Position numbers and translations under genes: made by a program. Below are positions 13,527 through 58,035 of a stretch of 64,000 nt of DNA, piece by piece. This stretch comes from an uncultured Chthonomonas sp. Its GTDB lineage: Bacteria > Armatimonadota > Chthonomonadetes > Chthonomonadales > CAJBBX01. The notes beneath the pieces were generated by a model that searched no databases, was not told the origin of the DNA, and saw only the letters and a program-made list of their open reading frames with translations. The stretch is from assembly GCA_903885605.1 (NCBI GenBank), contig CAISJD010000192.1, positions 1,063-65,062 on the forward strand, read 5' to 3'. Position 1 is the stretch's first letter. The number at the start of each line of letters is the position of its first letter.

Positions 13527-13555
13527 TTGACAAGCGCCGCGCCGAACGGTAAAAT
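13527..13555 (+). promoter_or_regulatory. sigma-70-type promoter for tRNA-Gln
   Basis: TTGACA (13527-13532), then a 17-bp spacer, then TAAAAT (13550-13555). The -10 element ends 11 nt upstream of the tRNA 5' end. Confidence 0.6.
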
Positions 13556-13566
13556 GACAGTCGCGT

Positions 13567-13639
13567 TGCCGGATAGCTCAGTTGGCAGAGCGGCTGACTC
13601 TGGATCAGCAGGTCTAAGGTTCGAACCCTTATCCGGCAG
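13567..13639 (+). tRNA. tRNA-Gln (anticodon CTG)
   Basis: Hand-folded cloverleaf. Acceptor TGCCGGA/TCCGGCA, D stem GCTC/GAGC, anticodon stem GCTGA/TCAGC with loop CTCTGGA (anticodon CTG at 13600-13602), T arm TAAGG-TTCGAAC-CCTTA, discriminator G. A U1:A72 pair is present and CCA is not encoded. Confidence 0.9.
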
Positions 13640-13659
13640 TACTGACCAGCCTATCAGTG

Positions 13660-13697
13660 AAACGGGATGCTCGCGAGTTCGCGGGCATCCCGTTTCT
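13660..13697 (+). terminator. stem-loop terminator after tRNA-Gln
   Basis: AAACGGGATGC (13660-13670) pairs perfectly with GCATCCCGTTT (13685-13695). An inner CGCG/CGCG pairing is present, and TTTCTG follows the stem. Confidence 0.6.
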
Positions 13698-13736
13698 GCA
13701 TCTCAGGCCGCGCTGAGGACCCACAAGGGGGCGCCC

Positions 13737-16700
13737 GTGCATAGACAGCTCTTCGTGATCGCCGTGCTCCTCCTGACTCGCGCTGTGTCGGCCGCCGAGG
13801 GCAAGCCGGCCGTGGTGGACACGCTCTTTGCCACCGACGACGTCGTGATCGCCACGTCCGTGGTCAGCCCACCCGCGGACCCCGGCGCCGATGCGAGCCC
13901 GCTGATCCAAGCCGCCGTGGACAGCACTGCTACCGGCGGCGGGGGCGTGGTCTTCCTCCGTGCCGGCCGGTACCGGATCGAGCGGCCCCTCGTCATCAAG
14001 GACGGCGTGACGCTGCGCGGCGACTGGACGCCGCCGAGCCGGAGAGGCTGGGAAGGCGGCACCCTCTTGATGCCGACCGCCGGCAAGGGGAGCGCGGAGG
14101 GGCCTCCTGCCATCGGGCTGACCAGCAACTGCGGCGTGCGGGAGATCGCCGTCTGGTACCCGGAGCAGTCTGCCGTCCGGCCCGTGCCGTACCCGTGGAC
14201 CATCGCGACCGTCAGGGCCGCCGGCTCGACCCAGTCCATCGCGAACCCGACCGTGCTGAACGTGACCCTGGTGAACCCCTACCAGGGCGTCTGCATCGGC
14301 CCGCAGACGAACTTCCTCTTCGTGGTGCGCAACGTGTACGGCACGCCGCTCAGGACCGGCCTCTCCATCGACGCCTGTTACGACATCGGCCGCACGCATG
14401 GTGTGCGCTTCAGCCCGCGGTGGTGGGAAACGGCCCGGCTGCCGGGCGCGCCAAAGACGCACGCCTCGCGGACGGCGCTGCGAGCCTTCATGCTCCGCGA
14501 GGCGACGGCGCTGGACCTGGGGCGCGACGAGTGGGGCTACGTGTACGGCGTTGAGATCGACGGCTACCGGACCGGCATTCGGTTGCGGCCCGGCGATGGG
14601 CTCATGAACGGCGTTTTCTTCGGCTGCACCGTGCGCGATTGCGCGACGGCGCTGCAGTTGGACGCCGTCAGCCCGATCGGCATCTCCGCGACCGGATGCA
14701 CGTTCCAGGGCAGGGACTGCGCCGTCGCGGCGCCCGCCTCGTTCGGGGGAGTGGCGCAATTCAACACCTGCACGTTCGCTTCCGGCGGCAGGTCGGCGAT
14801 CACCGGCGGCGGCTCCGGCACGCTCATGTTCCAGAACTGCTCGTTCCGAGCATGGCGGCAGGTGGCCGTCGACGCTACGGCCGGCGCGTTGACTGCCATG
14901 GGATGCTCATTCCAGCAGGCGGGTGCGCACGTCAGGCTCGGGCCGGGCGTCGCTCGGGCCAGGATCATCGGCAATCGGTTCGCCGGGCGGCCCGGGATCG
15001 AGTGCCGGGCGGAGCGCGGCGACGTGCAGGTCTCGCACCGTCCCGTTGCGTTCGCGCGGCCGGACGTGTCGCCGATGCAACTGCCTCCCGATCCCAGGCC
15101 GGCGACGAGGCAGCTCTTCCTCGTGACCGACTACGGAGCGGCGCCGGAGCGTCAGGACAACACAGATGCGTTCCGGCGAGCGCTCGAGGCAGGCGGCCGC
15201 GCCGGCGGCGGGACGGTCTACGTTCCGGCGGGGGTGTACCGACTGGCCGGGCAGATCACCGTGCCTGCGGGGGTCGAACTCCGCGGCTCCTTCGACACGC
15301 CGCACCACACGTTGTGCGCGGGCTCGGCGCTACTGACCACATCGGGACGCGGAAATGCCGAGGGCACGCCCTTCATCCAGCTTCGGTCCGGATCGGGCCT
15401 CCGCGGCCTAACCATCTCGTACCCGGATCAGAACATGACCGGTATTGTGCCGTACCCCTGGGCCGTCAGGGGCCTCGGCCCGCGCTGTTGGGTCATGCAC
15501 GTCAACATCGCGAACGCGTTCCAAGGGGTGGATTTCTGGACCCATCGAAGCGACGGCCACCTCATCCGCTACCTCGACGGCTCGTACTACCAGAAGGGCC
15601 TGTTCGTCAGCAAGTGCCGCGGCAAGGGCTGGATCGACGACGTGCACTTCAACCCGCACTTCGGCTTCTGGGTCGATCCCCGCCTCAAGCCTGTGCCGAC
15701 GGCGAACTGGGACGCTACGATCGAGTATGTGAGGTCCAACCTGATCGGAGTGGCGCTCGGCCGCTGTGACGACGAGCAGGCGCTCAGCACCTTCCTCTAC
15801 GCAGGCCACGACGGCTTGGCGTTCCTGGACGACGGCGGCAGCGCGAAGGCGCGCGTGATCCATCATGGAACCGACACCGGTGAGCGGTGCGTCGCCATTG
15901 AGACCTCCGGCAAGAGCCGCATCACGCTGATCAACCCCCAGCTGGTGCCTCTGGGCCGCCAGGTTGTGGGCGGGATCGTGGTCGGCGAGCGCTTTGCCGG
16001 CGCCGCTTCGCTCTTCGGCTCGTCCATGTGGCCGTCGAGCATCGGAGGGGTGGTCGGCGGGCGCGGCAGCGTGCTGATACAGGGCTTGAACAACCTCAGC
16101 GGCACGATCACGATCCGGGGCGGCCGATGCGCCGTAGAGAACGCCCGGTTCGACGGCGCGCCCGGTCCCGAGATCCGTGTGACAAGCGGATGCAACGCAG
16201 CGCGGCTGATCGGCAACGTGTCAGCGTCCGGCTCTCTCGGGATCGACAACCAGGCGCAGGGACGATGCGTCGCACTGGCCAACTCCCTCGACGTGCCCGT
16301 GAGCCCCGTAGCCGGCATGAGCGTCCTCACCACGGGATGGGAGGCGGCCGATCCGCAGCGCGCGCCCGACCGGGTCGACTCCACGGGGTCGTGGCAGGCG
16401 GGAGTGTCCGGAGCGGCGTGCCGCGTTACGGACCAGGACTGCCGCGTTACGGACCAGGACTGCCGCACCGGCCGACGCGCGCTGCGGATCTCCGGACGAG
16501 CGGACGACCCGGTTCACGCCTACGCCTACTACCGCATACTGGATGGACCCATCGCCGTCTATCGCGATACGGTCCTGAGCTACTGGATCAAGCCGTCCGA
16601 CGAGACCAGCCGACAGGCCGGCATTGATCTGACCTTCACCGACGGCTCCGATCTGCGCTCGTCCTCGGCAACCACCAGCACGGGCGCGAACGTGCATGCC

Positions 16701-17141
16701 GCCAACCCGAAGGGCGTCGTCGGCCAGTGGACCCAGGTCAGCATCCCCCTTGGCCGGTACCTGACGGGCAAGACCATCAGCGCCGTCCTGCTCGCGTATG
16801 ACAGCCGCGGCGGTCACGGCCCCTTCGATGCGTGCATCGATGATCTATCCGTGCAGTCGTCGCTGGCCGGCCGGAACTGGGAGGTGCGAGCCGACCCGGC
16901 GGGCGGCGTGTACCCGGGAGAGGTCCGTGTCGAGCTGAAGGCTACCGGGTCCGCGGCGATCAGGTACACGCTGGATGGAACGTCGCCGCGGCCCGACTCG
17001 CCTCTCTACGGCGGCCCCATTCTGCTGGCCCGTCCCGGCCTGTACGATGTCAGGTTCCAGACGCAGGCGCCGGATGGGCGCCTGAGCGGCTGGGTCGGCG
17101 GAGCGCTGTATGAGGTCGGCAGCCGCGCCATGGGGCGGTAG
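13737..17141 (+). CDS. secreted tandem right-handed beta-helix glycosidase (two pectate-lyase-3-type domains, GH55-like architecture) with C-terminal carbohydrate-binding-like and chitobiase/Hex C-terminal (Fn3-like) domains
   Basis: GTG at 13737 preceded by AAGGGGG. Signal (M)HRQLFVIAVLLLTRAVSAAEG. Two copies of the Pectate_lyase_3 signature (IQAAVDSTATGGGGVVFLRAGRYRIERPLVIKDGVTLRGDW and FRRALEAGGRAGGGTVYVPAGVYRLAGQITVPAGVELRGSF). C-terminal IRYTLDGTSPRPDSPLYGGPI. The track ORF start at 13527 would run through the tRNA. Confidence 0.65.
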   Translation: MHRQLFVIAVLLLTRAVSAAEGKPAVVDTLFATDDVVIATSVVSPPADPGADASPLIQAAVDSTATGGGGVVFLRAGRYRIERPLVIKDGVTLRGDWTPPSRRGWEGGTLLMPTAGKGSAEGPPAIGLTSNCGVREIAVWYPEQSAVRPVPYPWTIATVRAAGSTQSIANPTVLNVTLVNPYQGVCIGPQTNFLFVVRNVYGTPLRTGLSIDACYDIGRTHGVRFSPRWWETARLPGAPKTHASRTALRAFMLREATALDLGRDEWGYVYGVEIDGYRTGIRLRPGDGLMNGVFFGCTVRDCATALQLDAVSPIGISATGCTFQGRDCAVAAPASFGGVAQFNTCTFASGGRSAITGGGSGTLMFQNCSFRAWRQVAVDATAGALTAMGCSFQQAGAHVRLGPGVARARIIGNRFAGRPGIECRAERGDVQVSHRPVAFARPDVSPMQLPPDPRPATRQLFLVTDYGAAPERQDNTDAFRRALEAGGRAGGGTVYVPAGVYRLAGQITVPAGVELRGSFDTPHHTLCAGSALLTTSGRGNAEGTPFIQLRSGSGLRGLTISYPDQNMTGIVPYPWAVRGLGPRCWVMHVNIANAFQGVDFWTHRSDGHLIRYLDGSYYQKGLFVSKCRGKGWIDDVHFNPHFGFWVDPRLKPVPTANWDATIEYVRSNLIGVALGRCDDEQALSTFLYAGHDGLAFLDDGGSAKARVIHHGTDTGERCVAIETSGKSRITLINPQLVPLGRQVVGGIVVGERFAGAASLFGSSMWPSSIGGVVGGRGSVLIQGLNNLSGTITIRGGRCAVENARFDGAPGPEIRVTSGCNAARLIGNVSASGSLGIDNQAQGRCVALANSLDVPVSPVAGMSVLTTGWEAADPQRAPDRVDSTGSWQAGVSGAACRVTDQDCRVTDQDCRTGRRALRISGRADDPVHAYAYYRILDGPIAVYRDTVLSYWIKPSDETSRQAGIDLTFTDGSDLRSSSATTSTGANVHAANPKGVVGQWTQVSIPLGRYLTGKTISAVLLAYDSRGGHGPFDACIDDLSVQSSLAGRNWEVRADPAGGVYPGEVRVELKATGSAAIRYTLDGTSPRPDSPLYGGPILLARPGLYDVRFQTQAPDGRLSGWVGGALYEVGSRAMGR

Positions 17142-17362
17142 GCGATCCGGCCGCGCGGCTACGGCGGACCCGCCGCCAGCAGGAGGGTCACAAGGCTTCG
17201 CGCGGGAACGGTAGCGCGGACGCTCGCGCCGCCGGTTGTCACCGGGAGCCGGTCCTTCGGCTTGCCGGTCAGGTCCGCCACCCCTCGACTTCGACGACCC
17301 GTAGCGGCGCGCCGGGCGCTCGTTCTGGTAGCATGGGGCATCCTCGAAGCAGGAGCCCGACC

Positions 17363-19897
17363 ATGCGCCTCCGCCTCTCGCTGCCGGCGGTCCTCATCGC
17401 CCTGGCCGCCGCCCTCCCCGCTGTAGCCCAGCCGCTCCAGTCCATGCCGCTCAGCACGCTGACCCCGTCGGCGGAGAAGCAGGGCTACGCCGCGGCGGCC
17501 ATGGACAGCGACGTGGTGGGACCGCCCCTGCGCATCGCCGGTCGTGAGTTCGAGACGGGCATCGGCGCCCACGCTCCGTCGGAGATCACCTACGAACTGG
17601 ACGGCGCCTACACGCGCTTCCGGGCCTGGGTCGGCATCGACGATTCGATGATCCCGCACAAGCTCGGCAGCGTGGAGTTCATCGTCACGGTGGACGGGCG
17701 CGAGGCCTATCGGAGCGGCCTGGTGCGCTTCGGCGAGGCGGCCCGGCGCGTGGACGTGGACCTATCCGGCGCGCGGGAGCTGCGGCTGGCGGCCACCGAC
17801 GGCGGCGACAACATCAACGGCGACCACGCCGACTGGGGCGACGCCCTCCTCCTCGGCCCTGCCGCCGCCGCCGATGCGCCGGGCCCGGTCCGCGCGACCC
17901 TCTCCGTCGCGGGCCTGAAGGTGGCGCTGGACGACGACGGCGACCTGGTGGGCCTCGACGGCGGAAGGCATCCGCGCCTCTCGGGCAAGTGGCGGCTGGC
18001 GGGCTTCCGGCCGACCGGTCCGGCCCGCATGCGCCGATCCGGCGGGGGCGTCACCTTCACGCGAGGCTGGTCCGCCGCCGACGGCCGCGCCTGCTCCATC
18101 GCCGTCACCTGGCGGCCCTCAGGCGGCGCGCTGCGCTGGGAGACGGCCGTCACGTCGCAGGGCAAGCCGTGGACCGCCGCGGCGGTCACCACCCTCTCCT
18201 GCGCCGACGCCGCCGACACCCGCGTCTGGGCCGCCTGGTCGGACCCCGAGCGGAAGCCCGGCCGCTGGCGCGACCCGCTGGAGCCCATCGCCTTCGCGTC
18301 GCGCTCGTGGCGCTACGGCAACGTGACGCAGGCGGGGCCGACCGGGGCGGACTTCATCGTGGCGCCGCTGGTCTCGCTCCTCTCGGCTCGCGCCGACCAG
18401 GGCGTGACGCTCCTGATCCCGCCGGACGGCGTGCTGCTGGACCTCTCGCTGGCCCTGACGGCCTCCGGCGACGTGCGCCTGACGCGCACCCGGCACCGCT
18501 TCGGCGGCGGCAAGACCGTCCGGTTCGCCATGGAGCTGGCGCCCCACGAGGCCCACTGGCGCGGCGCGCTGCGGACGCTGACGGCGCGCTACCCGGCCTA
18601 CTTCGACGCGCCCAACCCGCGCGCCCACGAGCTGGCCGGGACGGCGGCCTATTCCGGCTCCGAGCAGCCCGTCGATGCAGACAAGCTCCGGGCCATGGCC
18701 TTCCGCACCAACTGGAAGCTCTCGGACGACTTCCCCTACATGGGCCAGTTCCTTCCGCCCGTGCGCACGCCCGACGAGAAGTGGGCCCGAGCCGCCGACG
18801 AGCCCTGTCCGCCCGGCAAGGAGGCCTGGACCACCGCGCGCCGCATGAACGACTACGCGCGATGGATGAAGGCGCAGGGCTTCCACGTCCTCAGCTACTT
18901 CAACGTCACCGAGTATGGCCGCAACCTCGTCGACCGGCCGGTGGAGCCCGCCCGCGCGGCCGACCCGGCGCTCTGGAAGGACGGCCTCGCCTACCTGAAG
19001 CTGAAGCTGCCCAACGCCGCGCTCAAGCCGGTTATAGGCACCTGCTACAACGCCTGGATCGTCGACGTGGGCGACCCGGCCTACCGCGACTTCATGCTGG
19101 AGCAGGCCCGCCGCAACATCGCCCTGCTGCCCGACACCGACGGCGTGTGCATCGACCGGCTCGACTGGCTGCGCCTCTACAACCCGGCCGGCGACGACGG
19201 CGTGAGCTGGGTCAACGGCAAGCCCGCGCGGTCGCTCTACCGCTCCTGGCTGGCCTTCACCGACCGCCTCGGGCCGCTCATGCACGCCGCCGACAAGGTC
19301 ATCTTCGCCAACACCATGACCATGCGACTGGAGCTGTGCCGCCGGCTGGACGGCATCTACACCGAGCACGGCGACCAGGGAGGCGCACTCAACGGGGCGG
19401 CGCTCATGGGCCTCCGCAAACCCGTGCTGGCCTGGACGCTGCCCGGCACGCTGCGCGACCCGGACCCCGACAGCTTCTTCCAGCGGCACCTCTACATGGG
19501 GGCCTTCCCCACGGCGCCCTACCCGTACAACAACCACTGCATTGGGCCGGACGCCTGGGCCGAGAGGTACTACATGGACTACGGCCCGCTCATGGACGCC
19601 ATGCGCGGCAAGCGGTGGGTGCTGACGCCGGGCTGCGTCGAGGTGGCGGGCGGACAGGCGAAGGCCAACCTCTTCGAGACGCCCGAAGGCTGGGCGCTGC
19701 CCGTGGCGCTGGGCGGCGAGGCCACGCAGGCTGTCGTCACGCTGCGCGGCGTCCCGGTGGGCGGCGCCCCCAGAATCACGGCCCTCCACCCCGGCCGCAT
19801 CGCCGAGGAGCCCGTCTCGGCGGTCTGGCAATCCGGCGCGCTGACCCTCCGAGTGCCCCTGCGGCGGGGCTGCGCCATGGTGAAGATCGCGCGGTAG
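17363..19897 (+). CDS. secreted NPCBM-domain protein with uncharacterised (probably glycoside-hydrolase-like) C-terminal region
   Basis: AGGAG 7 nt upstream of ATG 17363. Signal MRLRLSLPAVLIALAAALPAVAQP. NPCBM/NEW2 pattern (LRIAGREFETGIGAHAPSEITYELDG.YTRFRAWVGIDD...GSVEFIVTVDGRE...LRLAATDGGDNINGDHADWGDALL). Confidence 0.65.
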   Translation: MRLRLSLPAVLIALAAALPAVAQPLQSMPLSTLTPSAEKQGYAAAAMDSDVVGPPLRIAGREFETGIGAHAPSEITYELDGAYTRFRAWVGIDDSMIPHKLGSVEFIVTVDGREAYRSGLVRFGEAARRVDVDLSGARELRLAATDGGDNINGDHADWGDALLLGPAAAADAPGPVRATLSVAGLKVALDDDGDLVGLDGGRHPRLSGKWRLAGFRPTGPARMRRSGGGVTFTRGWSAADGRACSIAVTWRPSGGALRWETAVTSQGKPWTAAAVTTLSCADAADTRVWAAWSDPERKPGRWRDPLEPIAFASRSWRYGNVTQAGPTGADFIVAPLVSLLSARADQGVTLLIPPDGVLLDLSLALTASGDVRLTRTRHRFGGGKTVRFAMELAPHEAHWRGALRTLTARYPAYFDAPNPRAHELAGTAAYSGSEQPVDADKLRAMAFRTNWKLSDDFPYMGQFLPPVRTPDEKWARAADEPCPPGKEAWTTARRMNDYARWMKAQGFHVLSYFNVTEYGRNLVDRPVEPARAADPALWKDGLAYLKLKLPNAALKPVIGTCYNAWIVDVGDPAYRDFMLEQARRNIALLPDTDGVCIDRLDWLRLYNPAGDDGVSWVNGKPARSLYRSWLAFTDRLGPLMHAADKVIFANTMTMRLELCRRLDGIYTEHGDQGGALNGAALMGLRKPVLAWTLPGTLRDPDPDSFFQRHLYMGAFPTAPYPYNNHCIGPDAWAERYYMDYGPLMDAMRGKRWVLTPGCVEVAGGQAKANLFETPEGWALPVALGGEATQAVVTLRGVPVGGAPRITALHPGRIAEEPVSAVWQSGALTLRVPLRRGCAMVKIAR

Positions 19898-19915
19898 GGC
19901 TGCCTTCAGGGCGGC

Positions 19916-20004
19916 GTCCGTGGAAGTCCGTGTCCGTCCGTGCTCGTCCGTGCCGCCGTAAGGCCCACACGGACCTCCACGGACGAACACGGACGGACAC
20001 GGAC
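19916..20004. repeat. inverted array of phased heptamers: 4 x GTCCGTG then 4 x CACGGAC, each at 10-bp spacing
   Basis: GTCCGTG starts at 19916, 19926, 19936 and 19946. CACGGAC starts at 19968, 19978, 19988 and 19998. Bases 19926-19952 are complementary to 19978-20004 with one mismatch. The array lies between convergent stops at 19897 and 20025. Confidence 0.85.
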
Positions 20005-20024
20005 GGCCGCCCTTGCCCCGCCCC

Positions 20025-21689
20025 CTACGGCGGCAGGACCTGCAGCTCGTCGATGGTGGGGCCGTCGGTGGCTTCGAGGATGTTCAGCTTGATGCTGCGC
20101 GCCGTGAGGGCCGGGAAGGTGGCCACGTAGTCGGCTGGCATGGTGGTTCCGGTGAGGAGCGTCTTCCACTCGCCGGTGTCTCGGGCCAGCAGCTCGAAGC
20201 GGCGGATGCGCTCGGCGTAGAGGGCCTGCTGCAGGACGCGTACCTTGCCGACGGTGCGCGGCCTGGCCAGGTCCACCTGCAGCCATGCGCTGTGGGTGCC
20301 GGCGTCGGTGGCCCAGCGCGAGGCCGGATTGTCGTCGATGGCGGCCTCGGCGGAGTACTCCTCCATGTTCTGGAAAACGTTGCTGGCCGTGGCCTTGCCG
20401 TTGGCGCTCAGGGCTCCCGCCACGGTGATGGGCTTGATGGACGCCGCCGGGCGGTCCAGGTGGAGGGCGATGATCGTGTCGATGGCGCGACGCGTGGAGC
20501 GTGGCGCCGTGATGCGGAGGCCCTCGGCGGTCTGCTTCACGCGGGCGAGACCGCCCGTCACCACGGTCCAGCCCCGCACCCGCGCGGGTAGCGCCGGCAG
20601 CGTCACGGCGCCGTCGGCCCAGCGCATCAGGTGGAGGTAGATGGTCTTGTCGCGGCGCGTGGAGGCGCCCCAGGCTCCCGGCCGGTAGGGACCGCCGCGG
20701 GTGGCGTAGACTGTCTTGCCGAAGCTCCCCAGCCAGCGGCCCATCTCGGCCAGCCGCTTCACCTGCCGCGCCTCGATCTCGCCGGTGGGCATGGGGCCCA
20801 CGTTGAATAGCAGGTTGCCGTCGCCGCCGGCGCACTTCACCAGCGTCTGGAGGCACTGCGAGAGGGGCTTCATGGCGTCGCCGGGCTTCCAGGCCCACTG
20901 GTTGCAGATCGTCATGCAGGTCTCCCAGGGTCGCGAGTCCTGGTAGGCTCCGATGGTCTGCTCGGGCGTGTCGAAGTCGGCGGGCACGGCGCTGCGGTTG
21001 TTGATGAGTATGTCCGGCTGCAGCATCCGCGTGAAGTCCACCACGCGCTTGCCGCGCTCGGGCGAGAAGCCCTGCGGGACGTCGAACCACATGACGAGCA
21101 ACGGCCCGTAGTTGTTGATCAGCTCGGAGACCTGGCTGCGCAGGTAGACCTCGTAGCGGTCGAGGCTCGGGTTGGGCTTGTTGGTGCTGCCTCCGGGGCT
21201 GCCGTAGGGGAAGTCGGGGTGGCGCCAGTCGCAGACCGAGTGGTAGGTCCCGAACGCCAGCCCGCCCTTGCGGCAGGCCTCGGCCAGCTCCTTCACCACG
21301 TCGCGCTTGAAGGGCGAGCCCATGATGTTGTGGTCGGTCTGCTTGGTGTCGAACATGCAGAAGCCGTCATGGTGCTTCGTGGTGAAGACCATGTACTTCA
21401 TGCCGGCGGCTTTGGCGATGCGCACCCACTCGTCGGCGTTGAATGCCGTGGGGTTGAACTGCTTATAGAGCGCGTCGTACTCGGCCTGGGGCACGTCGGC
21501 CCCGCGCGACCAGCCGATCTCCGTGCCCTTGATGCTCACGGGGCCCCAGTGGATGAACATCCCGAACCGCGCATCGCGCCACCACTGGAGCTTCGCCGCG
21601 TTGGGCGCCGGAACCCCGGAGGCCGCCTGACCCGCGGCGGGAAGCCCGAGGACCACCGCCAAACCCACTGCCGCCAGCGCCCTGATCAT
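20025..21689 (-). CDS. alpha-L-fucosidase (GH29) with C-terminal F5/8 type C (discoidin) domain, secreted
   Basis: WWRDARFGMFIHWGPVS and MVFTTKHHDGFCMFDTK are GH29 signatures. The C-terminal ...AIDDNPASRWATDAGTHSAWLQVDL is discoidin-type. The ORF is open to GTG 21698, but that GTG abuts GGAGG. ATG 21689 has 8-nt spacing and is preferred. Confidence 0.88.
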   Translation of the reverse strand: MIRALAAVGLAVVLGLPAAGQAASGVPAPNAAKLQWWRDARFGMFIHWGPVSIKGTEIGWSRGADVPQAEYDALYKQFNPTAFNADEWVRIAKAAGMKYMVFTTKHHDGFCMFDTKQTDHNIMGSPFKRDVVKELAEACRKGGLAFGTYHSVCDWRHPDFPYGSPGGSTNKPNPSLDRYEVYLRSQVSELINNYGPLLVMWFDVPQGFSPERGKRVVDFTRMLQPDILINNRSAVPADFDTPEQTIGAYQDSRPWETCMTICNQWAWKPGDAMKPLSQCLQTLVKCAGGDGNLLFNVGPMPTGEIEARQVKRLAEMGRWLGSFGKTVYATRGGPYRPGAWGASTRRDKTIYLHLMRWADGAVTLPALPARVRGWTVVTGGLARVKQTAEGLRITAPRSTRRAIDTIIALHLDRPAASIKPITVAGALSANGKATASNVFQNMEEYSAEAAIDDNPASRWATDAGTHSAWLQVDLARPRTVGKVRVLQQALYAERIRRFELLARDTGEWKTLLTGTTMPADYVATFPALTARSIKLNILEATDGPTIDELQVLPP

Positions 21690-21964
21690 AAGATGCACCT
21701 CCTGTGCGGTGGCCGCACGGCCGACCTGAAGCTCGTCATACCGGAGTGGCCGTATCCCACCGGCGCATCCCAGAGGCTACCCCGACACGGTTCAAGAGCG
21801 CCACTTCCCTGGAACAGGAGAGCGGCTCCCATGGCCCGCATAGACGATGGTCTGTCCCCCCAAACTGAGGCACGGGATCAAGACGCGACGATGCCGTCGT
21901 GGGAGGCACGGCGGAATGGGCACGTTGCGCTGCCCAGACCTGGACCGCACGGGCCCGCCGTCCC

Positions 21965-50137: not shown

Positions 50138-53100
50138 TTACGGAACCACGTTGAACGCGGCGTTGGCCGAGGCGGACGAGTACCACGCGTCGCCCGCGAA
50201 GGCGGCGGTGGCCGTGTGGGCTCCCAGCGCCTCGCCGGCGGGCATGGCCCAGGTGGCGCTTGCCCAGCCGTCGGCGGCCACCGTGCCGCTCCCGACGCCC
50301 GTGCCGTTCACGCTGAAGGCGATGCTCTTGCCGGGCAGGATGACGTAGTCCGGCAGGCTGCGGACGTAGGCCTTCAGCAGGTGGTTGGTCCCCTTCTTGG
50401 CGGAGCGGACGTAGGGCCAGATGTAGATGTCGCCCTTGGTGACGGTGAGCTTGCCGTTGTTGGCCGAGGCCACGTAGCCGCCGTCGCCGGCCCACTCGCT
50501 GCGAACCGTGCGGATGCCCGCGCCAGAGCCCTCCGGCACCGTGTAGCCGAGCTGGGCGTAGCCCGCCGCGCGGGTCACGTCCGAGCCCAGCACGGAGCCG
50601 TCCACCTTGATCACCATGGTCTTGCCCCCCACCGGCGTGTTATTCAGCAGGTAGAGGTAGGCCTTGAGCACCGTGTACGTCTTGACCTTGGCCGTGCGGT
50701 CGACCACGTAGACCTTGGTGGCCAGGGTTTGGGCCGTCAGCTTGCCCGTGGTGACGCTGGGTCCATACTCCACGTCGCCATCGAACCGGGCCTGGATGGT
50801 CCGGCTGGCTGGCCCATCGCTGATCACCCAGGTCAGCGCGGCCTGGCCGTCGGCGTCCGTGACGGCCGAGCCCACGTCGACGCCCTCGACGCGGAACGCC
50901 ACCGTGCGGCCGCTGAGCCAGGTGTTGTCGGACAGGCGCTTCAGATACCCCTTCAGCGCGATGGAGGTGGTGATGACGCCGGTGCGGTCCGGCGCGTAGA
51001 TCGACGTTCGCGGCCGGTCTGACGCCACGAGCGCCGTGTTGTTGTCCTCGCGGCCCTCGGCAATGGCGTTGCCGGGGTCGGCGACCACGCGGATCTGGGC
51101 CACGTTGACGCCCGCCATGACGGGCACGTCGATCCGCTGGGTGATGAAGCCCGCCAGGCTCGGCACGGTGGTCGAACCGAGTTGCACTACGCCGGGCGTT
51201 CCCGGCACGCCGGTGTAGGCCGCGACCACCAGGTCCGAGAGCGTGTCGAAACTCCGGTTGGTCACCGTGACGTGGGCCGTGCCGGTTCCGTCCCAGTTCC
51301 ACTCGAAGGTGGCGTCAGATGGGTCCACTGCCACGTCGGGCTGGGTCGATACCTCGCCCCAGTAGATCGTGCCCGCCGTGCCGTCGCACCCGTCGGCGCC
51401 GATGCCGCCCGCAGCGGTGACCGTGCCACCCGGGAAGCCCGTTCCGGCGACGCACCGCACGGCTATCCGACCGCCGCCGCCGCCGCCCGCCCGGACTTCG
51501 GGGTGCTCGTCGTGATGTGCAGCGCCTCCGCGAGCTCCGATGAGGCCGGAGCCGGAGAGCGTGGTGCAGGCGATCCGCACACTGCCGCCGGAGCCCGCAC
51601 CCGCATTGGCGTTCGGGTTGCCGTCGGAGATGATGGAGCCGTTCAGCAGGAGCGTGCCCCGGACCGTGACCGCGACGATGCCGCCTCCCGATGAGCCGGG
51701 AATGGCGTCGCCGATGTTGGAGCCGCCGCCGCTGCCCCAGTCGGCGGGCCAGGTGGGCGCGCCGTAGGGGGCGTAGGGGTTCCCGCCGCCGATCCCTCCG
51801 TAGGTTGCGCCGTCACCCGCGCTGTAGTCCCCATGCCCCGGGCCGCTGCGGTTGCCGTTGCCCATGCCCGTGGCGTCGATGGATGCGCCGGCCGCCACCG
51901 TGCAGTCCTGGCCGATCCAGATCTCCACGCCGCGGTTGTCCATCTGCTGGCACCGCAGCGTCGAGCCCGACTCCATCAAGAGGCTCCGCAGGGACATGCC
52001 GGCCACCGATGTGGAGAGCGTCATCGTGGCGTTGCGTATGCGCAGGTCTACGTCCGGCATCTCCAGCACGGGCTGCAGGACCGGACCGATCAGGACCCCG
52101 TTGTCGAATGCCAGCGTCGCAGTGCTGTCGCCCTGCCTCCGGCGGTAGATCGAGCCGGGCCCGCCGTCCATGGAGGAGCCGTTGAGCGCGCCTGCACCGC
52201 CCCGGCACTCTACCGTGCCGGCGAATGCGTCAGCCCCGTAGCTCAGGGCGATGCGCCCGCCGCCGCCGCCGCCTGCCATCCATCCCGCAGGCAGTGCGGA
52301 GATATCCGGCGAGCCGCCGTTGGCCGTGACGACGCCGGACCCCATGAGGGTGCCGACGCTCAGGAGTACCGAGCCGCCCGCTCCGGCGCCCACGTTGGCG
52401 GGGCCGGCTCCGTCGGCGCGGATGGCGCCGTCCAGGAGTAGCGTGCCCGGCACGGTGAGGCGTATGCGCCCTCCGCCTGCGCCGCCGGGATAGGCGTCGC
52501 CTACGTTGGATCCGCCGCCGCTACCCAGGTCTGAGGGCTCGACGATTGAGGCGTAGGCCCACTGGCCGTTCCCCGCGCCGGAGCCGCCGTGGGTGGCTCC
52601 GTTGCCGGCGCTGTATGTGCCCCCGCCAGGGCCGGAGCGGCTGGGGTAGCCAAGGCCGGTCACGTCGATGGAGCCGCCGGACTGGACGGTCAGGTTCTGT
52701 CCGACGGTCGCGCGGAGGCCGAACGAGCCGCTGGGGAGACAGGTGAGCGTTGTGTTCGGACCGAGCGTCAGGCTGCGGGCGTTGAGCCCGTCGGCCTCGT
52801 CGGAAAGGACCATGACCGCGCCGCGCACGACGAGGTCGGCCTCGGGCCGCGCGAAGGCCACCTGGTAGATCGCGCCGATGGCGCCGCCGTTGTCAAAGGT
52901 CAGGTTCGCCGCGGTCGCTCCGGTCTGCAGCGTATAGATCGAGCCGGGGCCGCCGTCGGCCACCGAGGTGTCGAAGAAGCCGCGGCCGCCCTGGGCGGAT
53001 ACCATGCCCGTGAACGCGGTCGATGCGTAATAGAGCGCCACGCGCCCGCCGCCGCCGCCGCCCGCCTGCCAGCCCGCGGGCAGGGAGGTCACGTCCGGCG

Positions 53101-56100
53101 TGCCGCCGTCGGCGGAGATGACGCCGTTGCCGCTGAGCGATCCGACGGTGGCGTAGATGGAGCCGCCCGAGCCGCCGCCTGTGTTGGGCGCACTGCCTCC
53201 CTCGGCCAGGATGGCGCCGCTGTTGGCCAGCGCGCCGTGTACGATCAGGCGTATCTTCCCGCCGCCCGCGCCGCCGGGGTAGGCGTCGCCTACGTTCGAG
53301 CCGCCGCCGCTACCGAAGTCGGTGGGCTCGACGATGGAGCCGTACGCCCATCGGCCGTTGCCGGCTCCCGAGCCGCCGTAGGTGGCGCCGTTGCCTCCGC
53401 TGTAGTCGCCGCCGCCCGGGCCCTGCCGGCTGGGGTAGCCCGCGCCGGTTACGTCGAGGGAGGCCGATGCTGCGACCGTCAGGTCTTGCCAGACCGTCAG
53501 CCGCAGGCCGGGGTCGTTGGCGCCGAGGCATGTGATCACGCTACCCTCGCCGACGGCGAGATTGCGGGCGCCCATGCCGGCGGGATCGGGCGATAGTGTC
53601 ATCACGGCGCCCAGCACCGTCACGTCCGTGTTCGGCATGTCGAAGACCGGCTGCATCACGTTGCCGACCTGCCCGTTGTTATCGTACAGCAGAGTGGATT
53701 GGGTCTCCCCGTTGCGCTGCATGAAGATCGTGCCCGGTCCGCCGTACAGGGGCGTGGTGTAGATTCTCCCCGCGCCGCCGCGAGCGTCCATGCGGCCCGC
53801 GAAGGTGTTGGCGTCGTAGTGCGCCGCGATCCGTCCGCCGCCTCCGCCGCCTGCCGGCCAGCCTTCGGGCAGGGCGGAGACGTCAGGCGACCCGCCCACG
53901 GCCTCGATGAGGCCCGAGCCGGCCAGGGAGCCGACCTTCAGGTGGATAGAGCCGCCGGAGCCGCCGCCTGCGTTAGCCGGGCCGATCCCATCCGATAGGA
54001 CCGAGCCTTCCACGGTGAGGGCGCCGGCGACGGTCAGGTCCACCAGCGCGCCGCCGGAGCCGCCCGGCCATGCGTCGCCGACATTGGGTCCGCCGCCGCT
54101 GCCCAGGTCGGTCGGCGCCTCGATGCTGCCGTAGACCCAACGGCCGTTGCTGGCTCCCGATCCGCCGTAGGTCGCGCCGTTGCCGGCGCTGTAGTCGCCG
54201 CTACCCGATCCCTGGCGGCTGGGATAGCCCAGTCCGGAGCCGTCCAGTGAGCCGCCGGGTCCCACCGTCAGGTCCTGCGCGGTGGTGATCTTAATGCCGT
54301 CGGCCGTGGCCTGCTGGCACAGGATCACAGAGCCGGCATCAACGGTCAAGTTCCGCACGCTCAGGCCGGCCGCATCGCTGGAGAGCGTCATCACGGCGCC
54401 CTTGATCGTCATGTCCAGATCGGTCATGGCGAAGACGGGCTGCAGCACCGGACCGGTCAGCGCGCCGTTGTCGAAGAGCAGTGTGGCGAAGGCCGCGCCG
54501 GACTGCCGCATATAGAGCGTGCCCGGCCCGCCGACCGCTGCCGTGCTGTTGACGCGCCCATGCCCGCCGCAAGCCTGGTAGGCGCCGGTGTAGTTGAGGG
54601 TCTGGTACTCGATGCCGATCCGCCCGCCGCCGCCGCCGCCGGCCAGCCAGCCGTCGGGCAACGCCGAGGTATCCGGCGAGCCGCCGACGGCCGAGATCAG
54701 GCCTGAGCCCGCCAGCGTGCCCACGGCGAACCGCAGGCTGCCGCCGGAGCCGCCGCCGGCGTTGGCCGGGCCGATGCCGTCGGCGCGGACCGAGCCGTCC
54801 ACGGTGCAGACGCCGCCCACCGTGATGCCGGCGATGCCGCCGCCCGGGCCGCCCGGCCATGCGTCGCCCACGTTGGGTCCGCCGCCGCTACCGTAGTCGA
54901 CCGGAGCAGTGAACGAGCCATAGGCCCAGCGCCCGTTGCCGTAGCCCGAGCCGCCATAGGTCGCTCCGTTACCGGCGCTGTAGTCGCCGCCGCCGGTTCC
55001 CTGCCGGTTCGGATGCCCCGTACCGTTGACATCGATGGAGCAGCCCGCATCCACCGTCAGGTCTCCGGAGACCTGCAGCGGAAGGCCGAACCCGTCCACT
55101 GCGGGACAGGTTGCCTCGGCGGCGGTCATGAGCCGCATGTCGGCCACCTGGATGGGTCCGCTGCTGCAGCTGAAGCAGATACGCGCCATGGCGAGCGTCA
55201 GGTCGGCGTCGGGAAGGGCCACGGCCGCGTGCTGGGTATAGCCGAAAGCCGGGCCGTTGTTGAACTCGACTGTCTCGTGCGACGTGCCCAGCCCGTGGCA
55301 GTAGACGGTGCCGGGGCCGCCGTTGCATGCAGCCGTCCCGTAGACGCCCAGGCCGCCGCGGGCCTGCATCTGGCCGCTGAACGTGCTCGTGGTCCAGGTC
55401 ACGGAGACCCGGCCGCCGCCGCCGCCGCCCGCCCGCCAGCCGGGGGTCATCCCGGAGACGTCCGGCGTTCCGCCGTTGGCTACGAAGGTTCCATCCCCCG
55501 CCAGGGTCGTCGCGCTCAGGCGGATCGAGCCGCCCGCGCCGCCGCCCGCGTTGGCCGGGCCGATGCCGTCGGAGCGGATGTTGCCCTCCACCCGGCAGAG
55601 GCCGCCCACTGTCAGGTCGATAAGCCCGCCTCCCGTGCCTCCCGGCCAGGCGTCTCCGAGGTTCGAGCCGCCGCCCGAGCCGTAGTCGGCGGGCGCGGTG
55701 ACGGAGTCATTGGCCCACCTCCCGCTGTCGCCGCCTGTGCCGCCGTGCGTGGCTCCGTTACCGGCGCTATAGTCACCGTTGCCGGGGCCGTTTCGGCTCG
55801 GGTACCCATGGCCCGAGGCGTCGATCCGGCTGCCGCTCTCGACCGTGAGGTCGCCGGAGACGGCAATCTGCAGCGCAGGTCCGGCCGGTGCCACGACGCC
55901 GCTGTCGCGGACGAGCAGGCTGGCGTAGGATGCCCCTCCTCCTCCGCAGTCGATGGTCAGCGTACAGCCGGTGACGATGATCGGCTCGCCGGTGTACGAG
56001 CCGGCCGGTATCGTGGTGTCGCTGGTGAACTCCACGGCCTGCGCGATGCCCGGGGCCAGGCCCACCAGGCAACAGAGCGCGGCAACGGCGGCCCGTAGCC

Positions 56101-56128: not shown

Positions 56129-56360
56129 CGATCTGCTCTCCCGGCGCCGTAGCAGGGCGCCATGCAGGACGCGTAGGCCGTCATCGGCCCGGTCGCACGC
56201 CCCGCCTTCACTTGGTAGAGAGCGCAACGCCGGATCGTGATAGGCCGTTGGGCTCCATGCACGCCGAGAGCGCTCAATGCCTTGCTTCTTCGGCATCTTG
56301 GCGGTGATTCCTCCGTCCCTGGAAGGCCACGAGCGCCGGGCTACCGGGGATCGTGCGCGC

Positions 56361-56410
56361 AAAGGGGGCCTGCATACTGCCACGCTGAGCGCAGCAGTAC
56401 GCAGGCCCCC
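56361..56410 (-). terminator. stem-loop terminator after the sulfatase-like gene
   Basis: On the minus strand, GGGGGCCTGCGTACTGC...GCAGTATGCAGGCCCCC forms a 17-bp stem with one G:U pair, followed by TTTG. It lies 33 nt downstream of the stop at 56443. Confidence 0.5.
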
Positions 56411-56442
56411 TGATCCGGCAGGATGGACGGGGCGGCGCGCCC

Positions 56443-57849: not shown

Positions 57850-57957
57850 GCGGTAGTTCTCCCTATGGTGCGCCGAGCCGGCGGGCCCGGCCGCGTTGGT
57901 GGCGGATATGCGGCGGGCCAAAGTTCGCCACGGAGGCCCCGCATACCTCCCCGGTTG

Positions 57958-57997
57958 GTGAGGGGCTGAAGGGGTGAACGGGTGAGGGGGTGAGGGG
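57958..57997 (+). repeat. 5 x 8-bp tandem repeat GTGAGGGG (G-quadruplex-type G-run tract)
   Basis: GTGAGGGG CTGAAGGG GTGAACGG GTGAGGGG GTGAGGGG, read directly. Five G-runs of at least 3 are separated by 3-5 nt. The tract lies in a divergent intergenic region. Confidence 0.85.
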
Positions 57998-58008: not shown

Positions 58009-58035
58009 GTCCGTGCCGGTCCGTGTTCGTCCGTG
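58009..58035 (+). repeat. 3 x GTCCGTG heptamers at 10-bp spacing
   Basis: GTCCGTG occurs at 58009, 58019 and 58029. This is the same heptamer and phasing as the 19916-20004 array. It ends 31 nt upstream of ATG 58066. Confidence 0.85.

Follow-up and report, generated by a model that had tools for sequence, protein, structure and literature searches.

The window, by which we mean the whole stretch of 64,000 nucleotides analysed, belongs to an Armatimonadota chromosome of 70% GC. Its longest inverted repeat is a 106-bp imperfect palindrome (19908-20013) that fills the spacer between two convergent, glycosidase-type genes (Table 1). Gaps of 10 nt on the left and 11 nt on the right separate the palindrome from their stop codons, while the heptamer arrays that form its core lie 18 and 20 nt from these codons. 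Its building blocks are eight copies of one seven-base word at a period of exactly 10: on the forward strand, GTCCGTG starts at 19916, 19926, 19936 and 19946, and CACGGAC at 19968, 19978, 19988 and 19998, just where an earlier reading of the sequence alone (the sequence-only reading) had placed them. The element spans 19908-20013 because an 8-bp G+C clamp (19908-19915/20005-20013), absent from that reading, closes the stem. Other convergent pairs in the window are mostly separated by gaps of 21 nt or less and carry no hairpin.

Table 1. Coordinates of the palindrome, the genes beside it and the second array, numbered along the window.
Feature	Position	Strand	Evidence or remark
Upstream convergent gene, 854 aa, NPCBM/NEW2 domain	17333..19897	+	PF08305, E = 5e-42; GC3 = 0.95
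Stop codon of upstream convergent gene, TAG	19895-19897	+	Orthologue of the gene called in relatives
Left half of G+C clamp, AGGGCGGC, closing the hairpin base	19908..19915		Pairs with 20005-20013 in RNA and DNA folds
Left arm, 4 x GTCCGTG, exact 10-bp spacing; spacers GAA, TCC, CTC	19916..19952	+	
Apical loop CCGCCGTAAGGCCCA	19953..19967		Sequence and fold
Right arm, 4 x CACGGAC, exact 10-bp spacing; spacers CTC, GAA, GGA	19968..20004	+	
Right half of G+C clamp, GGCCGCCCT	20005..20013		RNA and DNA folds
Stop codon of fucosidase gene	20025-20027	-	
Downstream convergent gene, 557 aa, alpha-L-fucosidase with F5/8 type C domain	20025..21698	-	PF01120, E = 4e-80
Solo array, 3 x GTCCGTG, 10-bp spacing; spacers CCG, TTC	58009..58035	+	No inverted partner

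Structure and turnover of the window element

Within the 10-bp unit GTCCGTGNNN, no part is complementary to another, and pairing arises solely between the two opposed arrays. RNA folds reach -88.0 kcal/mol (+ strand, z = -7.2) and -97.6 kcal/mol (- strand, z = -7.9), the DNA fold reaches -49.6 (z = -6.4), and 0 of 200 shuffles fold as well. Within the apical loop, a 3-bp mini-stem is predicted between 19955-19957 and 19962-19964, and its cap, GTAA (19958-19961), follows the GNRA pattern on the + strand only. The alternative register proposed earlier, 19926-19952 with 19978-20004, extends over 27 nt at 96% complementarity. Since the in-register and shifted folds are modelled at -79.9 and -72.2 kcal/mol with the clamp, 'slippery' is a fair description of the hairpin predicted on both strands. 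The hairpin is followed by the tails GGCCGCCCTTGC (+ strand) and GCCGCCCTGAAG (- strand); neither strand carries a T tract, and a terminator pattern scan returned 0 matches. Lacking a T tract and having the polarity that is rare in the family described below (GTCCGTG first, with the A-rich arm on the 3' side), the window copy does not bear out the suggestion of a bidirectional terminator in the canonical intrinsic sense. Three open reading frames that cross the array (17989-20130, +; 18119-19990, -; 19906-21090, -) are spurious, as had been suspected, and the peptide HGRTRTDTD is simply 19978-20004 read as CAC GGA CGA ACA CGG ACG GAC ACG GAC.

A second array, of three direct copies at 58009, 58019 and 58029, was likewise correctly reported. 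It ends 30 nt upstream of an in-frame ATG at 58066, the start of a 330-aa gene with a GGGAGGG ribosome-binding site, and the 216 nt around it have no excess structure (z = 0.16). The heptamer occurs 25 times in the window against 15.7 +/- 3.9 in shuffles. Eleven of the 25 copies lie inside the two arrays, and the remaining 14 are single, as previously stated, at a count compatible with chance. When runs of at least three GTCC/GGAC units with a phase of 9-11 bp are sought, the window yields five matches, all within the two arrays, and shuffles yield 0.1.

The locus changes quickly between close relatives, which were reached through fucosidase homologues whose proteins are 95-99% identical (one is named as from Armatimonadetes; the exact protein is not on record). 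In strain L183 (99% amino-acid identity), one unit has been lost and one spacer differs, and the contig of L180 breaks within the array. Another hairpin, composed of 9-bp units, takes its place in relatives that are 95-96% identical, and replacement of the whole spacer is seen among relatives 95-99% identical.

A family of phased decamer arrays in about 15 phyla

The unit [A]CACGGAC[NN], or GTCCGTG on the other strand, recurs in phased arrays of three or more copies at no fewer than 119 genome loci and in 37 viral contigs; the genome-locus counts are lower bounds, and the taxa are a sample among the matches listed, perhaps biased by their order. We refer to the family as the decamer-array element and write a four-unit tandem as (ACACGGACNN)4. 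Among the matches listed, the heptamer is found at 10-bp spacing in about 15 phyla, and the carriers are mostly Acidobacteriota, Lentisphaerota, Hydrogenedentota, Planctomycetota and their relatives. A related Armatimonadota metagenome-assembled genome (MAG), JAPLCQ01, holds three more copies (L029, L095 and L121, the last at 14674), array density in the lineage of the window is 3 in about 100 kb, and several MAGs carry multiple loci. In the cultured Marinobacter halophilus JCM 30472, the element (L090, 1840-1936) lies downstream of topA. An assembly artefact is rejected because arrays are present in this isolate, in the whole-chromosome MAG records OY970373.1 and OY970194.1, and in the independently assembled strain L183.

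An all-against-all BLAST of 2,875 ORFs from the 119 loci found no conserved neighbouring gene, returning generally abundant families alone (e.g. GFO/IDH/MocA). No Rfam family matched at gathering score: the window region gave sub-threshold microRNA-precursor (generic hairpin) matches, and the arrays of 19 other family loci gave none. A literature search with the sequence string returned primers and unrelated matches, with no description of the element.

The spacing is nearly invariant: of the distances between neighbouring copies, 396 are 10 bp, four are 9 bp and one is 11 bp. For the real word at 10 bp, 26 of 37 arrays have non-identical spacers. Three shuffled words give 2/16, 1/3 and 0/1 (Fisher p = 8e-5, real vs shuffled), and the real heptamer at other spacings gives 1/22 (9 bp) and 2/10 (11 bp); arrays in all these controls are nearly all perfect tandem repeats. 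The 10-bp phasing remarked on in the window is therefore real and specific, as judged by the 9- and 11-bp controls. The array is neither unique, given phased arrays at 119 or more genome loci and in the viral contigs, nor a product of chance, given a 10-bp phase that recurs far beyond the window and variable-spacer arrays that are specific to the word.

Orthologous loci at 80-86% identity indicate which positions are held. Over two comparisons (L206/L208, where L210 matches L206, and L187/L204), heptamer columns are the same in 73 cases and different in 3, whereas spacers and loop stand at 42/16 and flanks at 80/43, together 122/59 (Fisher p = 1.3e-7). At the level of sequence, this comparison shows the heptamer to be constrained independently of pairing. 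Degenerate phased units keep the GGAC positions best (83-94%), and the flank profile of the arrays contains decaying units alone. Spacer complementarity, at 65/147 against 47.9 +/- 5.8 in shuffles, is in modest excess, and the spacers are therefore taken to be mostly internal loops.

Arrays usually begin 5-50 nt past the stop codons of unrelated, Pfam-verified genes, and the flanking pairs are convergent in 28 cases, co-directional in 39 and divergent in 12 (genes in these loci are crude ORF and GC3 calls with Pfam spot checks). An inverted partner is present in ~42% of arrays, nearly always with CACGGAC first, the partner lying downstream in 50-54 cases and upstream in 0-2. The remaining ~58% lack a partner within 130 nt, and therefore no hairpin is possible there. 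In copies with CACGGAC first, the head is rich in A and the tail in T, and those from low-GC genomes carry canonical T7 tracts. The reverse polarity is represented by the window element together with some 20 copies from metagenomes, and the ratio of the two polarities is drawn from different collections. True GTCCGTG-first hairpins on metagenome contigs of 66-69% GC likewise lie 4-30 nt after stop codons, some within co-directional pairs, and have no nucleotide similarity to the window. The many-phylum family, the constraint on the heptamer, the polarity rule that the window copy violates and the fast turnover of its locus all go beyond the sequence-only reading.

Readings of the array

We tentatively favour, at somewhat less than an even chance, an element whose hairpin forms at the 3' end of transcripts, consists of a decamer unit that is sequence-specific and prone to slippage, and defines and protects both mRNA 3' ends. 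Both convergent transcripts would enter the element and fold in the cell as a very stable hairpin of 7-bp helices and small internal loops with no U tract. The hairpin would set the two mRNA 3' ends and shield them from 3'-to-5' exonucleases, and it may also aid factor-dependent termination, which would lessen antisense read-through into the opposite gene. Because selection keeps the heptamer independently of pairing, we infer a sequence-specific factor, a protein on DNA or RNA, that would read the units. The tandem build would let units be gained, lost and re-registered through slippage. In favour of this model we count the stability and two registers of the palindrome, its place between two stop codons, the many loci of the family and their gene-end context, the specificity of word and spacing, the constraint on the heptamer, the T-rich tails of CACGGAC-first copies as a link to termination, and the differences between strains and relatives. 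Several observations count against this 3'-end model. A hairpin alone leaves the heptamer sequence and the exact 10-bp spacing unexplained; the window copy has no T tract, arrays are often partnerless, and spacer complementarity is modest. The orientation of solo arrays relative to genes is only weakly biased (18:10 at 3' ends, p = 0.18), and a strand-asymmetry test for RNA-level selection finds no difference in fold energy between sense and antisense in co-directional contexts (10 vs 6, p = 0.44).

Many of the same observations would be accounted for by an array that works as DNA, which we consider possible, though on the unlikely side. A sequence-specific protein would occupy the heptamers, all on the same helical face, and oligomerise along the array, two inverted arrays would join two filaments at the gene boundary, and the hairpin would be a by-product; candidate binders include a nucleoid-associated protein, a global regulator, a transcription roadblock or a topoisomerase-positioning site. 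The exact 10-bp spacing, a conserved heptamer with free spacers specific to that period, and drift of spacers and loop around the constrained word all point this way. So do the 58% of arrays without partners, the existence of both polarities, the small orientation bias of solo arrays, and the position of the solo array at 58009 and of the L121 array upstream of gene starts. This is also how the nearest counterpart in print, the paired tandem-repeat sites of Geobacter metallireducens, has been interpreted (PMC2700814). However, no known protein is a candidate, the 119 loci have no conserved neighbouring gene, the near-absolute polarity of paired elements and their T-rich tails resemble terminator logic, and the strong preference for positions just past stop codons is unlike an ordinary operator. 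The cooperative protein-binding array and the mRNA-end hairpin, both raised by the sequence-only reading, stay live.

A broader proposal, which we regard as unlikely, would make the phased heptamer array a platform for a widely conserved sequence-specific nucleic-acid-binding factor that marks gene boundaries across phyla (Acidobacteriota, PVC phyla, Hydrogenedentota, Armatimonadota, Nitrospirota, Myxococcota and others). Its roles could be, for example, factor-mediated termination, insulation or topological control. Arm polarity would then be a terminating/non-terminating switch, with CACGGAC-first elements with a T tail and GTCCGTG-first elements without one as its two versions.

Polarity and turnover also bear on a non-autonomous mobile element of MITE or foldback type, which is improbable. 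Here the arrays would be subterminal transposase sites, the polarity would reflect terminal inverted repeats, and gene ends would be tolerated insertions. Three unlinked loci of the Acidobacteriota MAG CAVVXL01 (L086, L111 and L117) do have a common consensus longer than the heptamers, the hairpin unit forms tandem clusters (L188, L190, L194, L217), whole spacers are replaced between close relatives, and one heptamer reaches many phyla and viral contigs. The near-absolute polarity is compatible with terminal inverted repeats, yet GTCCGTG-first elements exist: set against the 50-54 to 0-2 of the family, the window element and about 20 copies from metagenomes are reversed. Elsewhere, copies within one genome differ in spacers and loops (L018, L027 and L031, from one MAG), unlike recent MITEs, and orthologous copies last through 14-20% divergence with their heptamers kept. 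No transposase adjoins any array or lies in the window, and neither an empty site nor, in an unsystematic look, a target-site duplication was seen.

Far less probable is an RNA-protein platform, in which RNA of the CACGGAC strand would sequester a GGA-binding protein or come under its control, in the style of CsrB/RsmZ or the TRAP triplet arrays. CsrA and RsmE bind the consensus (A/U)CANGGANG(U/A), which the transcribed CACGGAC strand matches. The commonest unit, ACACGGACGA, fits this consensus, GGAC is the best-kept part of degenerate units, and L034 contains dozens of irregularly spaced CACGGA motifs across 1.9 kb. Variable-spacer arrays are also absent from all six Actinomycetota loci among the matches listed, and that phylum is not known to encode CsrA. 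Against these points, the motif match is post hoc. GGA is buried in the stem of paired elements, including every GGA of the window hairpin, and in L034 its unpaired probability is 0.35 as opposed to 0.38 overall, which amounts to no preference. Solo arrays have no clear sense-strand bias, and a tblastn search with CsrA found no match in the window or in any fetched locus.

Least probable, and disfavoured, is a functionless, microsatellite-like 10-bp tandem repeat duplicated in inverted form: copy number does differ between strains, some long solo arrays (L011, L016, L037, L042 and L062) have spacers that are identical or 30-bp-periodic, as is typical of recent slippage, and all six actinomycete matches are perfect repeats, but conservation in orthologues is specific to the heptamer, it is in variable-spacer arrays specifically that the real word at 10 bp outnumbers its shuffled and 9- or 11-bp counterparts, one word recurs in about 15 phyla, and position and polarity follow consistent rules.

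One word at one spacing beside gene ends in so many phyla suggests a common gene-boundary signal. Very few short words are known to be common to several bacterial phyla besides Shine-Dalgarno sequences, parS, DnaA boxes and some operators, and those that are known each point to a conserved reading machine. A word of 7-8 nt with a strict 10-bp phase, free spacers and stop-codon adjacency in about 15 phyla therefore implies a reader and a gene-boundary mechanism that are not described in Rfam or in the literature searched. The carrier phyla are mostly poorly studied and rich in uncultured members, and M. halophilus makes the question testable in the laboratory. The arrays also matter in practice: metagenome assemblies break at them, as in the strain whose contig ends there, spurious ORFs arise from them, and since they vary between strains, annotation is affected and they could be used to tell strains apart.

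Comparison with known systems

Several known systems have features in common with the decamer-array element. CACGGAC-first members resemble bidirectional intrinsic terminators in their G+C-rich stem, A-rich 5' and T-rich 3' flanks and position after stop codons, and low-GC members add the T7 tracts. The window element is likewise a G+C-rich stem-loop directly downstream of a gene, but it has no U-rich tract 3' of the stem and is of opposite polarity, and solo arrays cannot form stems. Terminator stems, moreover, are normally not conserved in sequence. The DNA uptake sequences of Neisseria and Haemophilus (DUS/USS) occur as inverted pairs that double as terminators, with one copy per arm, and are lineage-specific and tied to competence. 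What they have in common with the decamer arrays is a short word that is maintained for something besides pairing and is often found in inverted pairs downstream of genes; they differ in having a single copy per arm instead of phased tandem arrays.

Promoters and replication origins are the setting of phased direct-repeat operators (e.g. the CtsR heptad repeat, OmpR/PhoB-type sites, plasmid iterons), which usually have 2-4 copies and are specific to a regulator and lineage. Like the decamer arrays, they place a heptamer and a short spacer about once per helical turn, with the word conserved and the spacer free; unlike operators, which are not known to lie after stop codons, decamer arrays sit past them. 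Many close copies of a short motif also recall CsrB/RsmZ and TRAP arrays, and the decamer unit contains ACANGGA. In contrast to CsrB/RsmZ, however, GGA is base-paired rather than exposed in loops, no Rfam match reaches gathering score, and there is no sense-strand bias.

REP, BIME and REPIN sequences of E. coli and Pseudomonas are intergenic and mostly downstream of genes, with proposed roles in mRNA stabilisation, termination and supercoiling (PMC3733652). Their REP units are species-specific stem-loops of 20-40 bp that leave a GTAG or CGTC tag unpaired (Di Nocera et al. 2013, PMC3733652). The decamer-array family is similar in consisting of short repeats in many dispersed copies downstream of genes, between convergent or co-directional ORFs, with inverted pairs that fold into larger hairpins. 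The decamer unit, by contrast, is non-palindromic and in tandem, with a palindrome arising solely from opposed arrays, and its heptamer is constant across phyla, whereas REP differs between species. The window element has no GTAG and contains CGTC solely as part of CGTCCGTG, in a paired region, and no RAYT gene is present among the Pfam-scanned genes of the window. Membership in REP/BIME is thus rejected on unit structure and tag (PMC3733652); of the REP/BIME-like family suggested by the sequence-only reading, a dispersed, gene-end-associated repeat family stands, and REP/BIME in the defined sense does not.

The 'global regulator binding sites' of Geobacter metallireducens consist of 3-5 short tandem repeats, mostly in pairs on opposite strands at variable distance (Aklujkar et al. 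2009, PMC2700814). They are dispersed and intergenic, including positions within operons, and their units, GTTGCTYN, TCTCCGTS[Y] and MTYCTGA, are 7-9 nt long (PMC2700814). Unlike these, the decamer element comprises GTCCGTG plus 3 nt at a period of 10 nt, and the Geobacter sites are described from one genome, with no cross-phylum conservation, phasing test or polarity rule reported (PMC2700814). TCCGT alone is common to the class 2 unit TCTCCGTS[Y] and GTCCGTG. In architecture, the likeness is that of paired arrays, seen in the window element and in ~42% of the family.

A phased palindrome between convergent genes

The spacer between two convergent genes in the window (G+C ~70%) contains the longest inverted repeat of the stretch, a palindrome whose left arm carries four copies of the heptamer GTCCGTG and whose right arm carries four of its complement CACGGAC, with 3-nt spacers between copies. 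All eight copies, and three further direct copies elsewhere, are confirmed where a sequence-only reading had placed them. A G+C clamp closes the stem, giving an element length of 106 bp. The heptamer occurs 25 times in the window versus 15.7 ± 3.9 in shuffles; the remaining 14 copies are single and as numerous as composition predicts. The heptamer arrays lie 18 and 20 nt from the two convergent stop codons. Other convergent pairs in the window mostly overlap or have gaps of at most 21 nt, with no hairpin.

Features in and around the two heptamer arrays of the window
Feature	Position	Strand	Remark
1204-aa pectate-lyase-like ORF	13527-17141		
21-bp tandem repeat	16419-16466		perfect, TGCCGCGTTACGGACCAGGAC x 2.3
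NPCBM-domain gene	17333-19897	+	TAG stop; palindrome starts 10 nt further on
Palindrome	19908-20013		
G+C clamp, 8 bp	19908-19915 with 20005-20013		closes stem
Left arm, 4 x GTCCGTG	starts 19916, 19926, 19936, 19946		
Right arm, 4 x CACGGAC	starts 19968, 19978, 19988, 19998		
Alpha-L-fucosidase gene	20025-21698	-	palindrome ends 11 nt short of its stop codon
2384-aa ORF	50138-57292	-	C-terminal Big_3_5
Imperfect palindrome, 37 nt	56350-56424		76% complementary, arms 1 nt apart
Purine-rich 8-bp tandem unit GGTGARGG	57957-57997		5 copies
Second array, 3 x GTCCGTG	starts 58009, 58019, 58029		no partner, no excess structure
330-aa gene	ATG at 58066		no Pfam match

As RNA, the element folds at -88.0 kcal/mol (z = -7.2) on the plus strand and -97.6 kcal/mol (z = -7.9) on the minus strand, and as DNA at -49.6 kcal/mol (z = -6.4). 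The shifted pairing register proposed from the sequence is also present (27 nt, 96% complementary); with the clamp it reaches -72.2 versus -79.9 kcal/mol in register, a cost of only 7.7 kcal/mol. As had been remarked, mechanical ORFs cross the array, and its right arm translates to HGRTRTDTD. No intrinsic terminator turns up at the element in a consensus scan, and this copy is not a canonical one; with no T tract on either side, the bidirectional terminator suggested earlier is unsupported in its canonical form.

The gene content of the window is ordinarily chromosomal, including many glycoside hydrolases, a sulfatase, RtcB, DUF1559 prepilin-like proteins and a class I (Glu/Gln-type) aminoacyl-tRNA synthetase, and no transposase, RAYT or CsrA is found among its genes. 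Metagenome proteins match the fucosidase at 95-99% identity; one is named by its source as Armatimonadetes, and one is encoded in MAG GCA_026392115.1 (JAPLCQ01). The second array ends 30 nt before the ATG of the 330-aa gene, and the GGTGARGG repeats directly upstream of the array occupy the spacer preceding that gene. The start of the 2384-aa ORF, which has many CCG/GCC triplet runs and a sole recognised domain, faces this region; the imperfect palindrome lies in its 5' part. The 21-bp repeat in the pectate-lyase-like ORF is in frame (7 aa) and includes ACGGAC and AGGAC.

A constrained word in strict phase across phyla

Exact matches to three GTCCGTG copies at 10-bp spacing occur at no fewer than 119 loci when one genome per GTDB species is scanned, and on 37 viral contigs of IMG/VR, so the anticipated dispersed repeat family exists. 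Among the matches listed, with taxonomy taken from record titles, loci with non-identical spacers number at least 32 in Acidobacteriota, at least 14 in Lentisphaerota, at least 9 each in Hydrogenedentota and Planctomycetota, at least 6 in Verrucomicrobiota (including Kiritimatiellae), at least 5 in Nitrospirota and at least 4 in Myxococcota, with fewer in Armatimonadota, Gemmatimonadota, Spirochaetota, Desulfobacterota, Sumerlaeota, WOR-3 and Proteobacteria. The actinomycete (6/6), archaeal (1/1) and Chloroflexota (1/1) matches listed are perfect tandem repeats, which we take to be unrelated microsatellites. JAPLCQ01, the MAG related to the window, has further copies at loci L029 (8 units), L095 and L121 (at 14674); L-numbers denote loci fetched from genomes or metagenomes for comparison. 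Cultured Marinobacter halophilus JCM 30472 carries a CACGGAC-first element of 5+2 units between topA and a convergent gene (L090 1840-1936), providing an experimental handle on the family.

Both the word and its 10-bp phase are specific, the phase as the sequence-only reading implied. In one viral collection, with the three-copy design throughout, GTCCGTG at 10 bp gives 37 loci, 26 of them with non-identical spacers, versus 1 of 22 at 9 bp (nearly all perfect tandem repeats) and 2 of 10 at 11 bp. The shuffled words GTGCCTG, GCTGTCG and GGTCTGC at 10 bp give 16, 3 and 1 loci, of which 2, 1 and 0 have non-identical spacers. Among the genome matches listed, neighbouring copies are spaced by 10 bp (n = 396), 20 bp (n = 26), 9 bp (n = 4) or 11 bp (n = 1). 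On the CACGGAC strand the third spacer base is A in 62% and spacers are purine-rich, making the unit [A]CACGGAC[NN]; where units have degenerated but stay in phase, their GGAC positions are kept best (83-94%).

The conserved thing is the word, which is constrained independently of pairing. In two orthologous metagenome sets (L206/L210 versus L208, 86-91% identity; L187 versus L204, 80%), heptamer columns are 73 same and 3 different, spacers and loop 42 and 16, and flanks 80 and 43; for this comparison Fisher's p is 1.3e-7. Opposed hairpin spacers are modestly complementary (65/147 Watson-Crick matches versus 47.9 ± 5.8 in shuffles), so the structure consists of 7-bp helices with small internal loops between them.

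Unlinked loci of one Acidobacteriota MAG (L086 4452-4619, L111 1962-2128, L117 1877-2030), and also L088 3360-3527, have a consensus in common that extends beyond the heptamers, CAGGGAC AGCGACGAG, loop, CTCGTCGCT GTCCCTG TTC (GTCCGTG NNN)3 rTCTGCC, pointing to a dispersed sub-family whose ends are defined. In low-GC loci the outermost unit regularly has GC before it (GC-CACGGAC ... GTCCGTG-GC), often beside an A or T tract (L007, L012, L015, L017, L021, L025, L096, L110, L199, L212), suggesting an element with a defined 9-nt terminal unit.

Gene ends, arm polarity and turnover

By crude ORF and GC3 calls with Pfam spot-checks, the arrays are intergenic and typically start 5-50 nt past stop codons. 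Their flanking genes are unrelated (GFO/IDH/MocA oxidoreductase, GH16, MacB/FtsX, MerR, PFK, NIPSNAP, S9 peptidase, TopA, RecQ); among the matches listed, 28 pairs are convergent, 39 co-directional and 12 divergent. On the CACGGAC strand, a partner of at least 60-70% complementarity lies within the next 130 nt downstream in 50-54 of the 126 arrays listed, versus 0-2 upstream; ~58% of arrays are solo, and their orientation with respect to genes is only weakly biased (18:10, p = 0.18). Exact paired arrays listed are CACGGAC-first in 32 cases versus one GTCCGTG-first, the window copy. Even at 70% GC, CACGGAC-first elements are A-rich at the head and T-rich at the tail, with true T7 tracts in low-GC genomes (L190, L038), and look like bidirectional intrinsic terminators. 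Whole CACGGAC-first hairpins also form tandem clusters with a period of ~74-92 bp and a T tract after each (L188 1-250, L190 1-250, L194 2600-2926, L217 2970-3780; also L205, L214, L215), an arrangement resembling BIME clusters.

The GTCCGTG-first polarity of the window copy is genuine, though rare. Metagenomes yield 34 loci with this arrangement, ~9 being junctions between tandem CACGGAC-first hairpins and ~20 true GTCCGTG-first hairpins, mostly on contigs of 66-69% GC. The latter have 3-4 units per arm, a 6-17-nt loop and no T tail, lie 4-30 nt past stop codons, and in some cases fall within tight co-directional gene pairs, where termination would be unwanted. We infer one unit type with two uses: CACGGAC-first with a T-rich tail would terminate, and GTCCGTG-first without one would form a non-terminating stable 3' hairpin. 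In a ~1.9-kb non-coding region of a Vicinamibacteria MAG (L034 230-2050, CAWDCH010000016.1), CACGGA, CGCGGA and TACGGA motifs occur by the dozen at irregular spacing, in two converging halves that repeat the element's polarity on a large scale.

The spacer turns over fast. A strain whose flanking gene product is 99% identical (L183) retains the element, but of the left arm two units and GCTCGTG are left, and a single spacer of the right arm reads CCA where the window has CTC; in another 99% strain (L180) the contig end falls inside the array. Relatives at 95-96% (L120 7036-7136, L181, L182) have a different hairpin in the orthologous spacer; its 9-bp units (ATGGGACNN x 3 against GTCCCATNN x 3) show GGAC-first polarity, and in L121 5648-5721 the GTCCCAT arm alone survives. 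The spacer keeps the element's style, units in tandem around a GGAC core, seen also in other fetched arrays (CAAGGACNN, CAGGGACAN, CATGGACNNN, GGTGGACGG).

Interpretation and comparison with known systems

The element is real and non-random, and its kind, an intergenic palindromic repeat at gene ends, is known; conservation across phyla and strict phasing are unexpected. The rules of position and polarity speak for a role at the 3' ends of transcripts. Strict phase, free spacers, a constrained word and the abundance of solo arrays speak for a sequence-specific reader of DNA or RNA; the two are compatible. The family, its phasing, the heptamer constraint and the polarity rule are direct observations; we infer that the element is transcribed, that it folds in vivo and that a reader exists. 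Our leading, still tentative, reading is that the window copy would form a hairpin without a U tract at the 3' ends of both convergent transcripts, could be a barrier to exonuclease, possibly helps factor-dependent termination, and may be built from a slippage-prone unit recognised by some factor. The phasing and solo arrays are also consistent with a purely DNA-level binding array; the gene-end rules point to transcripts, and we consider this alternative rather unlikely.

A MITE-like selfish element would be consistent with dispersed copies whose consensus extends beyond the heptamers; we judge this origin improbable. Neither a transposase nor a conserved neighbour gene turned up beside the arrays. 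The REP/BIME likeness first proposed does not hold, as the defining REP features (palindromic unit; GTAG or CGTC tag) are absent. The CACGGAC unit resembles the CsrA/RsmE consensus, but the hairpins have their GGA in paired positions, GGA has no preference for the unpaired state in L034 with its many motifs, and csrA was not found in any fetched sequence; a GGA-binding RNA platform seems highly improbable. A neutral repeat, set beside the heptamer constraint, is the least credible reading.

Rfam has no family at gathering score for the element or the family loci scanned. In co-directional contexts the sense fold is no more stable than the antisense one. The nearest published description found concerns Geobacter metallireducens, whose paired tandem-repeat sites have 7-9-nt units on opposite strands at variable distance; the authors' guess was binding of unidentified global regulators (PMC2700814).
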